DNA of 64,000 nucleotides from NCBI GenBank assembly GCA_951406725.2, contig OX597816.1:164672001-164736000 (forward strand), read 5' to 3'. Under the pieces are notes generated by a model that saw only the letters and a list, made by a program, of their open reading frames with translations, made no database searches and was not told the origin of the DNA. The stretch comes from Octopus vulgaris (taxonomy: Eukaryota). Below are positions 12,617 through 51,720 of the stretch, one piece after another (the first letter of the stretch is position 1; each line of letters starts with the position of its first letter). The translations under genes were made by a program, and so were the position numbers.

Positions 12617-13453
12617 CATATATTTTATTTATTACACTATTGTATGACTGAGCGCCTTCGCGTCGATTCGATTCGATTCGTTCCGTTTCGTTTCTTCTTC
12701 TTCTCCCAGTACAGTTTTTATATATAATTATGACGCGAAACCCTATACCTCTTTGCTTAACCTTCCCTTCTCTCCCTTTCTCTCTCTCTCTCACTCCTCC
12801 TCATCTCTCTCACAGCCGTTTGTCTTCCTCTATCTCTCTCTCTCTCTCACTCCTCATCTCTCTCACAGCCGGCCAAATACTTCCTTTTGCATGCGGCCTT
12901 CTAACTGTAAACACACGGTTTTCTTGCGCTCCTTGAATCTCTCCTCGTCTAGGCAAAAAAGGCCCTCTTTGGTTGTTTTCTTGTGTGTTTTTATTTCTTG
13001 TATTGTATTTTTTTGTAATTGTATTTTTATTTTGTATTTTATTTTGTATTTTATTTTGTAATTTTATTTGTATCGTTTTTACGTCCTGTTTGTGTCACAT
13101 TTTGTTATTTCCTTGTTTTTACCCCTCTGCGAAGTAATTTCCTTTAATTTCTTCGCAGGAAGGGCTAGTTCGACGAGTCGTGTTCTGTCCTCACCTTCGA
13201 AACACGCTGGAGTTGAACTAGGGACAGCTGATGAAGGGGATTTTTCCTTGTGTAGTTTGTCTAGTACTCTGTTTTTTCTTTGTAAAAAAAAGGTTCGTTC
13301 CATGCTTGTTTTTACGTTCTCGTTGAGTTCTGCGTCTATTTGTGGTGTCCTGTACTCACGTATATATATTTATATATGCATGTATATATACATGTAGATG
13401 TAGGTACGTACATATATGTATATATGTATGCATATATTTTATTTATTACACTA

Positions 13454-22693: not shown

Positions 22694-23603
22694 CATCATC
22701 ATCATTGAGTGAGAGAGCAGTGCATGCCATCAAAGTAACACTGGGGTAAAATATCCGAAGTCCAGTGTATCCATCATGACTACCCGTCTGATAAGGGTGC
22801 ACCAGGCAAATGCATCACAATAGTATGTGAGCGGCATGGTGATCTCATTTCAAAATAAACAGCGCATGACCTTAAAGGTGGGGCCCAGTTAGAATTTTCT
22901 TCAAGTCGAGAAACCCGTTCCATTCACAAGGTCGCTGAAGAAAAGGGTTGTTTAAGGATGATGAACGAAACACCCATGTTTTCAGGGGTGAATTATCCAA
23001 ACTCTAAAGAATTCCTCTCAACGCATGGCTATGATGCTCCGATCATCATCATCATCATCATCATCATTAATATTAATATCATTTGTAGTTAATAGCGGTT
23101 CTGATGCTTTTACAAGAGCTTTTAAACATCTACCCCATTACCAAGGATCTGTATGATGAAGTAGTCCTTCAAAGACTGTCTTTTAGACGTTTATCTGTTA
23201 TTGGCTCAAAAGAATAAAACAAAAGAGAATAAGAAAAAAGCGGTTTATTTACACGTAATGTAATGTGGCTTCTTCGATAGCGGTGAGATGTAGTTACCAC
23301 GAGTAGCTTAGATCATCTATTTCTTAAGGAAAACGAAAATCAAAAATAAAAAGACAACAACCCGAAAAAAGCCCTCAACGGTAGCAGGAGTGGCTGCGTG
23401 GCAAGAAGTTTGCTTCACAATTACATGGTTTAGGGTTCGGTCCCACTGCGTGGCACCTTGAGCAAGTGTCTTCTACTATAGCATCGGGTCGACCACAGCC
23501 TTGTGAGTGAAAACTCGTGAGAAAGAAAACTGAAGGAAGCCGCTCCTGTTCATATGCATGCATGTATACACACACACAAACGATTATTATTATTATTATT
23601 ATT

Positions 23604-26385: not shown

Positions 26386-26803
26386 ATATAATTAGTGAAT
26401 GGAAGAAATGGAGTTGAACGAAGATTGTACAGAATTCCTTTTATTACATTCTACACATGTTTCAAAGGCCACAATTTTCCAAATTCTGATTAAATAAGGA
26501 TACCATATTGCAGCTTTCTCTTCAGGAAAAACCAGGAATTACGTTGATTTCAACGTACATTGATAAACAGTTTACCCATGGGCTCTTAAGGAGCGTCCTC
26601 GTTCGAATTGCTTTGCTGCGCCTCTGTTTTGTTTTGTTCTGACAACGTAATTCCTGGTTTTTCCTGAAGAGAAAGCTGCAATATGGTATCCTTATTTAAT
26701 CAGAATTTGGAAAATTGTGGCCTTTGAAACATGTGTAGAATGTAATAAAAGGAATTCTGTACAATCTTCGTTCAACTCCATTTCTTCCATTCACTAATTA
26801 TAT
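26386..26803. repeat. 161 bp perfect inverted repeat with 96 bp spacer, one HHR per arm
   Basis: Arms 26386-26546 and 26643-26803 are reverse complements; right arm runs into (TA)n. Confidence 0.9.
26661..26740 (+). ncRNA. Type I hammerhead with long helix II and palindromic helix III (mirror copy 26449-26528, minus)
   Basis: UUC-CUGAAGA-G-AAAGCUGCAAU..AUUGUGGCCUUU-GAAA-CAUGUG-UA-GAA; helix I only 3 bp. Confidence 0.6.
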
Positions 26804-26902: not shown

Positions 26903-27049
26903 ACATTCGAAGCCCTCAGTCATCAGTCAAGAACCAGATCATCTTAGCAATTTCGGCTGATTAATCTTGAGATTGCTCCGATATGGGCAGCCCGCCAAGG
27001 AAAATCTAAGCCAAGTGCATTAGATCCCCTGGAAGAAAGCTTCGAATGT
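26903..27049 (-). ncRNA. Non-circularly permuted hammerhead ribozyme, complete copy (second subfamily)
   Basis: 15 bp closing helix; hairpin; II GGCUG/CAGCC; P0 CCAUAUC/GAUCUGG; III AGCAAU/AUUGCU; AUC site; I UCAAGA/UCUUGA; CUGAUGA at 26926-26920; lies in (TA)n-flanked element 26824-27520. Confidence 0.8.
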
Positions 27050-34605: not shown

Positions 34606-34744
34606 GACATATATATGAAAGACTTACAGTTAACAAAAGTCGGGATGCGTGGCGTTCAGTTACCTAATAAATGAGAAATGCATTAAATAGACAACGAAAG
34701 CTAAAAACCGCACACGTAGGACAGACACAGAAGGCCCTAATTCT

Positions 34745-34824
34745 TCATCAGTTATCGACCGAATGTTAACACTCAGTTTCATGCCCTTAGTGATTATACT
34801 GAAAACTTCGCATATCGGCGGCGC
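34745..34824 (-). ncRNA. Permuted hammerhead, decayed and 5'-truncated
   Basis: II GCGCC/GGCAU; P0 CCGAUAUG/CAUUCGG; III UUCAGU/ACUGAG; GUA site; I UAAUCA/CGAUAA (2 mismatches); CUGAUGA. Confidence 0.65.
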
Positions 34825-35049
34825 CCGTACATTTATGAATATATATCTGTATATACTTGCATATACGCATGCCTATCCTTTTATTCTTTTACTTGTTTGA
34901 GTCATTTGATTGCAGCCATGTTGGAGCACCGCCATGATAAAATTTTAGGGAGGCTAAAATAACACATATAAACATACATACTTATACATACATACACACA
35001 CACACACATATACATAAATATATACATATATACATAAATATATATATAC

Positions 35050-35115
<66 letters not shown>

Positions 35116-35198
35116 GGTCCCGGGTTGATTCGGGGTTAACCACAGTAAATAAGGTACTCAATACATAGTAGAGTAAAATTAATTTATTATATAGAAGG

Positions 35199-35249
35199 AG
35201 CTTCTACAGGACTAGAACTGTTTCATTCAAGAGAAATCTTCAGGAAGCT
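35199..35249 (-). ncRNA. Type I hammerhead ribozyme
   Basis: AGCUUC-CUGAAGA-U-UUC(UCUU)GAA-U-GAAA-CAG(UUCUAGUC)CUG-UA-GAAGCU. Confidence 0.75.
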
Positions 35250-35398
35250 GCTACATCAGGATGGTCGAAGAAGAACGATCTCCATCGAATTCTTTTGATG
35301 AACTCATCAGTCCGTCTAATGAGGGCTTTTTGGTACTGTTTCCTTGGTGGGATAGTAATGTTCTTCAGGGAAGTGTCGAGGTCGATTCTTGTCAGCAT
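35240..35398 (-). pseudogene. 52-codon N-terminal fragment of a Penelope-like retroelement ORF
   Basis: MLTRIDLDTSLKNITIPPRKQYQKALIRRTDEFIKRIRWRSFFFDHPDVAAS*; resembles the SLKNIP..Y...LI....FIKR.RW..FF N-terminal motif I recall from PLE RT proteins. Confidence 0.6.
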
Positions 35399-35585
35399 TT
35401 TTTCTTGGTGATGGTTATAAGGGCACTAGGGTGTGCTAGGATATGTAGGTCCCGGGTTGATTCGGGGTTAACCACAGTAAATAAGGTACTCAATACATAG
35501 TAGAGTAAAATTAATTTATTATATAGAAGGAGCTTCTACAGGACTAGAACTGTTTCATTCAAGAGAAATCTTCAGGAAATCTTCA

Positions 35586-35640
35586 GGAGCTTCCTGAAGA
35601 TTTCTCTTGAATGAAACAGTTCTAGTCCTGTAGAAGCTCC
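35586..35640 (+). ncRNA. Type I hammerhead ribozyme (inverted copy)
   Basis: GGAGCUUC/GAAGCUCC helix I, CUGAAGA, GAAA, ACAG/CUGU helix III, GUA site. Confidence 0.75.
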
Positions 35641-35649
35641 TTCTATATA

Positions 35650-35740
<91 letters not shown>

Positions 35741-35800: not shown

Positions 35801-35943
35801 CATTCGAAGTTTTCTTTCCTCAGTCAAGTACCAGATTATCTTCGCCATTTCGGCTGATTATACTTGAGATTGCTCCAATCTGGCCAGTCCCAAGGGAAAA
35901 CTAAGCTAAGAGCATTAGATTCCTTGGAAGAAAGCAGCGAATG
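35801..35943 (-). ncRNA. Non-circularly permuted hammerhead, complete with mismatches
   Basis: Closing UUUCUU/AAGAAA; hairpin CCAAGG/CCUUGG; II GACUG/CAGCC; P0 CCAGAUU/AAUCUGG; III AGCAAU/AUGGCG; AUC site; I UCAAGUA/UACUUGA; CUGAGGA. Confidence 0.75.
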
Positions 35944-38024: not shown

Positions 38025-38086
<62 letters not shown>

Positions 38087-38143
38087 CAGCCGAAATCTGC
38101 GATGAGGGATCAGTTTCTGACTGAAGAATGAAGGCTTTGAATG
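38087..38143 (+). ncRNA. 3' half of permuted hammerhead
   Basis: CAGCC-GAAA..CUGAAGA..GAAGGCUUUGAAUG; homologous to the 26.9 and 35.8 kb copies; truncated at (TA)n. Confidence 0.6.
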
Positions 38144-40144: not shown

Positions 40145-40190
40145 GACACCTGATGAAGGCTGGAGGGTATATCAACCGAAACGTTGTGCT
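40145..40190 (+). ncRNA. Minimal type I hammerhead
   Basis: GACAC-CUGAUGA-A-GGCUG..CAACC-GAAA-CG-UU-GUGCU; homologue of 57962-58007. Confidence 0.6.
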
Positions 40191-48613: not shown

Positions 48614-48696
48614 TAGCACGAGTGGGGTTCGAACCCACGCGGACATTCGTCCATTGGAACTTAAGTCCAACGCCTTAACCACTCGGCCATCGTGCT
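48614..48696 (-). tRNA. tRNA-Leu-TAA: tRNA-Leu (anticodon UAA)
   Basis: 83 nt cloverleaf: AGCACGA/TCGTGCT acceptor, TTGGA-CTTAAGT-TCCAA anticodon arm, long variable arm, GGTTCGAACC, followed by a T9 terminator. Confidence 0.96.
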
Positions 48697-48819
48697 GCTG
48701 TCTGCCAAGCGGCGAAATAAGTAGTTTTGTTCTGTGATAGCTAAAGATTTGGAACAGAATTCTTCTCAAGTAAACAAATATATATTATTTCGGCTAGAAA
48801 AAATTTTAAAAAAATGACT

Positions 48820-48902
48820 TAGCACGAGTGGGGTTCGAACCCACGCGGACATTCGTCCATTGGAACTTAAGTCCAACGCCTTAACCACTCGGCCATCGTG
48901 CT
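48820..48902 (-). tRNA. tRNA-Leu-TAA: tRNA-Leu (anticodon UAA), identical second copy
   Basis: Identical 83 nt sequence followed by a T7 terminator. Confidence 0.96.
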
Positions 48903-49547: not shown

Positions 49548-49853
49548 CACACACATATATATAATATGTCATAATAAAAAGATCTTATAGAGTGTACATG
49601 AGAATGATTACGATAAAACTTACTTGGAAGAGGATGCGTGGCGTTCCATCATATATATTATATACACTAGCATATATACACAACCACATGTACATACCCA
49701 CATCTATATGCACACATATGTGCACACGTGGGTACAGGACGCCATGAAACGTGGACAAAAAAAAAAACACGAGGCACGAGCACATGGAATATGACCCACC
49801 CCTTCGAACAACGAAAGACACAAATGAAAAACAAGACAAACAACATAGAAAAC

Positions 49854-49894
49854 GACCCCTCGTCAGCCGTTGGCCGTCCCTCCACTCCCACACT

Positions 49895-49898
<4 letters not shown>
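49854..49898 (-). ncRNA. 3' half of permuted hammerhead
   Basis: GAAG-UGUG..CAACGG-CUGACGA-GGGGUC; truncated by (TA)n. Confidence 0.5.
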
Positions 49899-49934: not shown

Positions 49935-50342
49935 TACTCTTTTACTCTTTTACTTGTTTCAGTCATTTGACTGTGGCCATGCTGGAGCACCGCCTTTAAT
50001 CGAGCAACTCGACCCCGGGACTTATTCTTTTTGTAAGCCCAGTACTTATTCTATCGGTCTCTTTTGCCGAACCGCTAAGTAACGGGGACATAAACACACC
50101 AGCATCGGTTGTCAAGCAATGCTAGGGGGACAAACACAGACACACATACACACACACGCTTATATATATATACATATATACGACGGGCTTCTTTCAGTTT
50201 CCGTCTACCAAATCCACTCACAAGGCTTTGGTCGGCCCGAAGCTATAGTAGAAGACACTTGCCCAAGGTGCCACGCAGTGGGACTGAACCCGGAACCATG
50301 TGGTTGGTAAACAAGCTACTTACCACACAGCCACTCCTGCGA
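49935..50342 (-). mobile_element. SINE family A, full length
   Basis: Reverse complement of family A. Confidence 0.85.
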
Positions 50343-50344
50343 CA

Positions 50345-51720
50345 CACACACACCTCCCGTTTCAGTAAAGTCATGGAGCGCATTGTGAGGAAAAGACTGA
50401 TTGAGTTCCTTGCGGACAATTACCTGCTTTCTGACACCCAGGAAGGAGCCCGGGAAGGAGCTGTCTTACACAGCTTCTTTGACACTATGGCCGAATCAAT
50501 TAATGAACTGCTCAAAATGTGGATGTGGTATAACCTCGACTTTGCGAAGGCACTTGACAAGATCGACCATGGAATGATATACCACAAAATACGGGGACTC
50601 GGCATCACCGGTAACGTCGGAGAGTGGCTGCATGATTTCCTAAAGGACAGGACCCAAACTGTAGCAGCCAACGGAGCTCTCTCCACAGAGACACCAATAG
50701 TGAGTGGAGTACCCCAGAGCATTGTGCTGGGGCCACTGCTTTTCGTGGTAGCCCTATCGGTTATGCCATCAGTGACAGAGGCAGCCATGCTTACCAGCTA
50801 TGCCGACGACACAGAAGTCGCACAGTCAGTCAAGGAAACCTCTGATGCTACGCTCTTGCAGAAAGATCTAGATACATGGGCTGATGATAACAACATGCAA
50901 TTTAATGCAAGTAAATTCCAGGCCCTCCGCTACCAGTTAAGCACTGCTCAGGAATCACGACATCAGTACATTGGACCATGTGAAGCAACGATCCCAGCAT
51001 CAAATACGGTCCTTGATCTTGGAACAGAAATGAGCAACAATGCCCCATTTCACACACATATCAACAAAAATGATAGCAGTATCCAGAAGACTGGTCGGTT
51101 GAATTCTGAGAACCTTCTGGACGAGGGACCAAGAAGCTATGATGTCACTATGGAAGTCATTTATCCTCAACCGACTGGACTACTGCTCTTAGCTATGGTC
51201 ACCTTATACTATAAGGATGATAGCAGAGCTTGAAGCAGTCCAGCGACATTACACATAGAAAATTGCATCAATGGAACGACTGAGCTACTGGGACCGATTG
51301 AAAGAGCTACGACTCTTTTCCCCGGAAGGAAGGCGGGAGAGGGATGTAGTGATATATATATGGAAGATACTGGAAGGCCTGGTACCAAACTTTGGAATAA
51401 AGAGCTATACAAGACCACGAACAGGACGTCACTGTGCTGTCTCCACTGCTTCATCTCGGGCAAGGACGATGTACTGCAATAGCTTGGTTTCAAGGGCCCA
51501 CAGCTGCTTAACTGTCTGCCGAAACATCTGAGGAGCCTCCATGGAGTGGGTGTAGACGTTTTCAAACACGAACTTGACCTCTGGCTCATCGAGATCCCAG
51601 ATGAGCCAATATTTAGGCAGGAAACTGAAAAGAGGGCAGTAACTTCGAACTCCTACCTTCACCAAAAGCCGCTCCGACAAAGGCGAAGGCGGTGCTCCAG
51701 CACGGCCACATAAAAAAATA
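50345..51720 (+). mobile_element. 5'-truncated CR1/L2-group LINE (RT domain, frameshifted)
   Basis: DFAKALDKIDH, SGVPQSIVLGPLLF, YADDT, WADDNNMQFNASK, LSYWDRLKELRLFS.E.RRER; A-rich 3' end. Confidence 0.9.

Follow-up and report, generated by a model that had tools for sequence, protein, structure and literature searches.

A probable decayed split-core hammerhead ribozyme in an octopus repeat, and related folds at the 3' ends of invertebrate retroelements

The closest described relatives of the motif reported here are the permuted hammerhead ribozymes of Eckert et al. 2023 (PMC10085705), who, in the sections of that paper covered here, treated three blocks, S, G and C, as unbreakable, derived six possible block orders from them and validated two, types SGC and CSG, by cleavage. 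Among the Penelope-like elements (PLEs), Naiads have been reported without canonical hammerheads, although some, in the covered parts of the reporting paper and its supplement, are marked 'HHR_core' or 'HHR_half_core', with no structure proposed (Craig et al. 2021, PMC8557442). Here, we analyze a segment at positions 34745-34824 of a 64-kb stretch of octopus DNA (the window), which is AT-rich and contains many microsatellites, SINE pieces and one LINE reverse transcriptase fragment. We regard the segment, from comparison with related sequences, as very probably a decayed, 5'-truncated split-core hammerhead derived from the 3' end of a retroelement. Our sequence comparisons show the strand order II5'-P0a-S-G-P0b-I5'-CUGAUGA, a layout that is the cyclic order of types CSG and SGC opened at a new point.

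Anatomy, decay and repeat family of the octopus copy

An earlier sequence-only reading had proposed a permuted hammerhead in this segment, and every block that it named was found at its place on the minus strand, 34824-34745:

34824-34820, minus strand: IIa GCGCC, the 5' strand of helix II (N10.1 onward) and the 5' end of the motif, detached from CUGAUGA; its placement is backed by covariation in other families
34818-34811, minus strand: P0a CCGAUAUG, 1 nt after IIa, the 5' strand of the helix tying stems I and II
34803-34791, minus strand: S block, with IIIa UUCAG-U, H17 = A at 34797 (GUA site) and Ia UAAUCA at 34796-34791
34785-34772, minus strand: G block, with IIb GGCAU at 34785-34781 (helix II 3' strand), GAAA and CUGAG (helix III strand)
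34765-34759, minus strand: P0b CAUUCGG
34757-34745, minus strand: helix I strand Ib CGAUAA at 34757-34752 and core CUGAUGA at 34751-34745, with no helix II strand after the core
34744-34733, minus strand: tail after A9, the P4 3' strand expected from other families; the P4 partner and the hairpin P5 are missing here
34621-34827, minus strand: 3' end of the 5'-truncated repeat that carries the motif, about 205 nt, running to a TA-rich microsatellite

The hammerhead core set is present (CUGAUGA, GAAA and the NUH triplet GUA), and the predicted cut site would lie between 34797 and 34796. Helix III forms 5/5 pairs, helix I 4/6, helix II 4/5 (a G-U at the core pair and one C:A) and P0, the counterpart of the 'interaction' stem in type SGC/CSG, 5/7 without a bulge; the best helix II score downstream of CUGAUGA is 3. 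Neither P4 nor P5 forms at A9, although both do in the window copies A, B and D listed below, and the match to five listed contigs ends at 34827, which agrees with the loss of an upstream hairpin proposed earlier. Given two mismatches in helix I, the weakness of helix II and the lack of P4/P5, the copy is probably inactive. Nested minimum free energy folding was no better than shuffles (z 0.55), a method that cannot show a pseudoknotted fold, and an Rfam search at gathering score gave no hammerhead of types I-III in the window and two tRNA matches only. At 48614-48902 (minus strand) lie two identical tRNA genes with a long variable arm and a UAA anticodon, in a 206-nt tandem repeat. Directly upstream of the motif lies a SINE 3' piece (34878-34960, minus strand); a stretch beyond it, CCCUAAAAUUU, bears a weak resemblance to the absent P4 partner, and the SINE may therefore have inserted within P5.

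A descriptor of the order II5'-P0a-S-G-P0b-I5'-CUGAnGA, loose and written with the motif already seen, gave three matches in the window, at +13228, at -26926 and at the 34745-34824 copy, with scores of 57, 55 and 42, respectively. Their helix sequences are unrelated, and the earlier proposal of at least three subfamilies within 64 kb is thus borne out by three families that share one block order. In 300 block-wise dinucleotide shuffles (19.2 Mb) the same descriptor gave 56 matches, or 0.19 per window, with a top score of 41; since the 34745-34824 copy outscores the best shuffled match by one point, its reality rests on the family data given below. The other copies in the window are as follows:

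13121-13240, plus strand: copy A, complete, of a separate family, with P4, P5, II, P0, III and I and a GUU site (score 57)
26904-27048, minus strand: copy B, complete, of a second family, with an AUC site and a 15-bp P4 (score 55)
35801-35943, minus strand: copy D, its motif at -35823, a decayed member of family B
38085-38143, plus strand: copy E, its motif at +38121, a decayed member of family B broken off at the G block by (TA)n
49632-49897, minus strand: a possible further truncated copy, weak, with core CUGACGA, GAAG for GAAA and the S block absent

No second member of the 34745-34824 family was found in the window by self-blast or by a relaxed scan allowing one core mismatch. Two repeat families that otherwise differ have an exact 15-mer in common close to their 3' ends, at 34643-34657 and 49632-49646 (minus strand), which may be a terminal signal. 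Large, (TA)n-flanked inverted duplications at 26386-26803 and 35124-35740 adjoin copies B and D and look like the truncated copies in inverted orientation that are known from Penelope-like insertions. Two motifs, at 40150 (+) and 57967 (+), resemble minimal type I hammerheads such as Penelope elements carry, and a type I-like motif at 22935 (+), with its repeat copies, is doubtful.

Sequencing runs supplied the family of the 34745-34824 copy. At 80% likeness 285, 354, 259 and 65 contigs aligned in four runs, representing at most three samples, and for this family the earlier suspicion that the motif is abundant is supported. The letter that restores pairing accounts for 727.6/783.8, 1390/1436.4, 381.6/404.1 and 36.9/39.3 of the depth at 34795 (93-97%) and for 2225/3752.6, 7109.8/11573.5, 3702.7/7227.8 and 108.8/186.8 at 34757 (51-61%). 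Because pairing letters dominate at both positions, both helix-I mismatches revert (UUAUCA/UGAUAA), a reversion that the sequence-only reading had put forward as a check, and helix I reaches 6/6 pairs in the family majority. The P0b position 34761 differs from the window copy in 73-82% of the depth. At 34781, C makes up only 11-28% of the depth, so GGCAU occurs in other family copies too, and the helix II defect of the window copy is therefore unexplained by its family; its core helix II pair is G-U, and the U is found in part of the family. Contig loose ends at 34780 (18, 30, 21 and 4 contigs in the four runs, agreement 0.55-0.83) lead into a sister subfamily that has a GUC site and reads GGUGC ahead of GAAA, and the GCGCC of the window copy would pair 5/5 with this GGUGC.

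The repeat itself is delimited by depth that begins at 34618-34626, by TA-rich loose ends at 34622 and by matches that stop at 34827. Two runs each contain one contig that joins 34816 back to 34623, a hint of partial tandems of the repeat. A (TA)n target, 5' truncation and a partial-tandem joint, all found here, are Naiad-type traits that are not unique to Naiads, and Hydra-1_Obim also uses a (TA)n target.

Helix II and the P4/P5 bridge across metagenome families

A sequence-only, pairing-free pattern built from the window family and excerpts of Acropora Naiads matched at least 120 metagenome loci, with long flanks for 80. Helices I (5/6) and III (3/4) form in 77/120 of the loci listed and failed in 43/120; three of the 77 lacked flank, and for the remaining 74 listed loci the best partner for helix II and P0 was found upstream 71 times and downstream three times, which places a split of the CUGAUGA block between A9 and G10.1. 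The pattern forces CUGAUGA, GAAAC and GUH, so that their conservation in this set is no evidence, and family 0 (33 loci) is not independent of a pattern built from the window family and Acropora Naiads. The loci listed fall into 14 families. In viral contigs a tighter pattern gave 6 matches, 0/6 of which reach 5/6 pairs in helix I, and a pattern specific to the 34745-34824 family found nothing; 121 stretches matched there by a looser pattern were put down to chance.

Taking one random member from each of the 14 families together with three window copies (17 units), we compared each unit's own helix partners with foreign ones. The upstream own partner scored 24.6 against 19.2 +/- 0.47 for foreign partners (maximum 20.8 of 500), whereas downstream the own partner scored 18.3 against 18.4. 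Several pair types occur at nearly every pair position of helices I, II and III, and 10.1-11.1 is G-C in 14/17 units. Within family 1 (plain MAFFT alignment of 13/16 loci, three short-flank loci left out), the split model leaves 92% of cells paired with 48 compensatory cells against 18.7 +/- 3.7 (0/500 shuffles), a count that overstates events because the sequences are related (about three subfamilies). Helix II of this family is 83% paired with 2/5 pairs changed on both sides, and 3/6 pairs of P0 show change on both sides. These comparisons show that helices I, II, III and P0 are kept by compensatory change across many families, and with this pairing and covariation in other families the earlier assignment of helix II to an upstream strand is supported.

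The same data weigh on a simpler reading, in which the motif would be an ordinary type SGC hammerhead whose helix II is drawn from the bases right after CUGAUGA and whose upstream match is due to chance. The blocks S, G and CUGAUGA do stand in SGC order, 5/74 of the listed loci have 4/5 pairs at the classic helix II place, and the form exists in the locus set: the family of L182 is a plain type SGC, and in L182 itself, an AT-rich metagenome contig, the helix II strand directly follows CUGAUGA and is followed by the interaction stem. Against this, the classic SGC order has 0 matches in the 64-kb window, the classic helix II of family 1 is 38.5% paired with zero compensatory cells, a slide of -2 that lifts pairing to 70.8% consumes the core G8/A9, and downstream partners are indistinguishable from foreign ones by the scores just given. 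We consider an ordinary SGC hammerhead highly improbable and retain the split core.

A second regularity of the split fold lies in the tail that follows A9. With the core blanked, this tail pairs with the strand directly before a hairpin (P5) that ends at IIa; this strict P4+P5 junction was found in 34/53 of the listed metagenome loci with enough flank and a helix II, against 22/530 with foreign tails, and in 9/11 families. The strict test supersedes a lenient P4 test (42/53 against 105/265) whose background is high, and P5 alone forms in 48/53 loci, a count without background. An alternative in which the tail pairs with the loop of the upstream hairpin was dropped in favor of the strand that precedes this hairpin. 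If P4 and P5 stack, A9 would lie two base-pair steps from N10.1 across their duplex. In four loci of family 1 (L218, L201, L217 and L224) the tail can, by eye, also pair into the base of P5, an alternative that would allow branch migration at the P4/P5 junction. The permuted hammerhead of the sequence-only reading is supported; that reading missed the P4 helix, the retroelement setting and the probable inactivity of the 34745-34824 copy.

Host elements and Naiad consensuses

In one metagenome locus (L164) a frameshifted ORF with an N-terminal GIY-YIG, CxC and DKA, which are marks of Naiads in the parts of PMC8557442 covered here, ends 89 nt before CUGAUGA; a Pfam search did not recognize the ORFs of this locus, and PF01541 was found in homologues of the ORF. 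A further locus (L178) also has Naiad-like protein matches upstream, giving 2/74 of the listed loci in total, most contigs being short. In family 1, a 994-aa ORF that encodes a reverse transcriptase, zf-RVT and a C-terminal restriction-like nuclease motif is matched at its end by 10/16 loci and stops 86-121 nt before CUGAUGA. In this RLE-type LINE, which may be HERO-like, the split hammerhead lies over and just behind the stop codon (L141:1-960, minus strand; L139), and in L141 a following element copy begins soon after the ribozyme, in head-to-tail or partial tandems that resemble those of Penelope-like elements. We hold insertion of the LINE into a Naiad tail to be less probable, as the strands of P4/P5 share bases with the final codons of the LINE itself.

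Such tandems invite the explanation that the core is completed between tandem units or in a circle, CUGAUGA being followed by IIa of the next unit. Partial tandems are described as typical of these elements in the covered parts of PMC8557442, and tandem joints occur both in the contigs of the 34745-34824 family and in L141. In every copy examined, however, the sequence downstream of A9 consists of the P4 strand and at least about 100 nt of 3' UTR, P5 lies ahead of IIa, and no unit boundary coincides with A9; a core shared between units seems to us very unlikely, and the split fold within one unit remains our preferred reading.

Beside the window copies, no remnant of a Penelope-type ORF was found by Pfam on 103/218 candidate ORFs or by tblastn of 113 Naiad-like proteins, and we therefore infer the Naiad-type host of the 34745-34824 copy indirectly. 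The same Pfam search over window ORFs gave only RVT_1 at 50094-51230, a 379-aa LINE reverse transcriptase fragment on the plus strand (E 2.5e-18). We think it likely that the host was a Naiad-type Penelope-like element.

The Naiad consensuses themselves were inspected by eye in File S5 of Craig et al. 2021, over 19 CTGATGA places unbroken by line ends and six record ends. In total, the split order closes nine of the published consensuses covered: with P4/P5 strands at the 3' ends of Naiad_Amil, Aacu and Anas (Acropora), Naiad-2_Movir, Naiad_Plae, Naiad_Esco and one unnamed record, and with an upstream hairpin in Naiad_Obim and Naiad_Ovul. Two of these, Naiad_Ovul and Naiad_Esco, bear an HHR_core/half_core note, and such notes and the split fold are alike in having CUGAnGA in the 3' UTR and, 35-50 nt from it, GAAA. 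Three nematode records, among them Naiad-3_Nbra and Naiad_Hpol, carry at the 3' end a plain, well-formed type CSG hammerhead, of a type for which the covered sections of Eckert et al. 2023 (PMC10085705) give two known examples. Naiad_Bfor fits the split fold in part only, its helix I having 2 bp, and in this inspection no fit was seen for Naiad-Ppla or Naiad-2_Skow. Six window motifs are absent from the Naiad 3' ends in the portion of the Craig et al. 2021 supplement covered, so the window families differ from the published consensuses. Since opening a CSG cycle between A9 and N10.1 produces precisely the split order, tandem duplication would be a simple path from one to the other.

Proposed fold and comparison with known hammerheads

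We propose that P4 and P5 stack into one duplex, whose strand crossover would then hold together A9 and G10.1, joined by a covalent bond in described hammerheads. A normal three-helix core could thereby form and, in an ancestor of the decayed copy, would cut after the NUH triplet by standard hammerhead chemistry, in which G12 acts as base and G8 as acid and the products carry a 2',3'-cyclic phosphate and a 5'-OH. Its role may have been to cut read-through or tandem element transcripts into units, as proposed for other Penelope-like hammerheads. On the wider claim we lean, with some reserve, towards an active seventh layout, additional to the six considered possible, whose stacked P4/P5 crossover would stand in for the A9-G10.1 bond: this layout would be the missing ribozyme of many Naiads (of cnidarians, acanthocephalans and cephalopods), would interconvert with CSG there, would have been taken up at the 3' end of an unrelated RLE-type LINE with head-to-tail tandems, and would exist in millions of unrecognized invertebrate copies.

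It is also conceivable, though we hold it unlikely, that the fold is real and does not cut itself, serving as a 3' structure for reverse transcriptase binding or cutting only with protein or as a dimer. A break between A9 and G10.1 is without tested precedent in the literature covered, and the search pattern itself dictates core conservation among the metagenome loci; yet all core bases and an NUH triplet (AUC, GUU, GUA) are also preserved in the window families, whose detection did not involve that pattern, and the G10.1-C11.1 pair, whose G side lies outside the pattern, is kept in those 14/17 units. In the work covered, the one PLE hammerhead studied in vitro (anole, PAc) required protein to cut, insertion did not depend on it, and none of the reads terminated at its site (PMC11167929), whereas PLE hammerheads with single-base inserts after A9 are listed in the part of Craig et al. 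2021 File S2 covered here (PMC8557442). Cutting by the intact split core remains the reading that we favor.

The split core would break a stated premise of the six-permutation hammerhead scheme and offer a direct test of the need for the A9-G10.1 link. It would give a structure to the unexplained 'half core' notes of Naiads, undercut the view of a Naiad clade spreading without a hammerhead, carry non-circular permutations over from rare environmental RNAs to high-copy retroelements of animals, and add an RLE-type LINE to the elements with a 3'-terminal hammerhead. Aptamers, too, could be inserted into the fold at a new point.

An extra base between A9 and G10.1 was reportedly described by de la Pena and Flores in 2001. 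One- or two-base core insertions are known in hammerheads (Perreault et al. 2011, PMC3088659, as far as covered) and differ from the split core, whose chain ends enter via a helix between A9 and G10.1. In the literature searched, mostly open-access papers, we found neither an account of a hammerhead whose chain opens between A9 and G10.1 nor one of permuted forms in Naiads; the covered part of PMC13725137 cites Weinberg et al. 2015 for variants with additional helices, which could bear on novelty.

The comparison with the permuted types in the covered parts of Eckert et al. 2023 (PMC10085705) is the closest. The split-core motif shares with types SGC and CSG the reversed cyclic block order, the pseudoknotted helices I-III, the short linker between stems I and II and the interaction stem (P0) that joins the remaining sides of these stems. 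The 34745-34824 motif has the type SGC order S, G, CUGAnGA with an interaction stem, but lacks the unbroken block C of that type, with a helix II strand 0-2 nt after CUGAnGA: in the Eckert scheme block C (I strand, CUGAnGA, II strand) is assumed to stay in one piece, and here it is split after A9, with P4 and P5 added. A term search of the accessible Eckert et al. 2023 supplement gave no octopus or Acropora entry, and the hosts differ, being animal retroelements here and metatranscriptome or metagenome contigs there. With the Penelope pseudo-LTR hammerheads, as described in the covered parts of PMC8557442 and PMC11167929, the motif shares a position near the element 3' end, 5' truncation, partial tandems and TA targets. 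Those hammerheads are of the nested type I/minimal form, whereas the split-core fold is non-circular and is missed by their descriptors.
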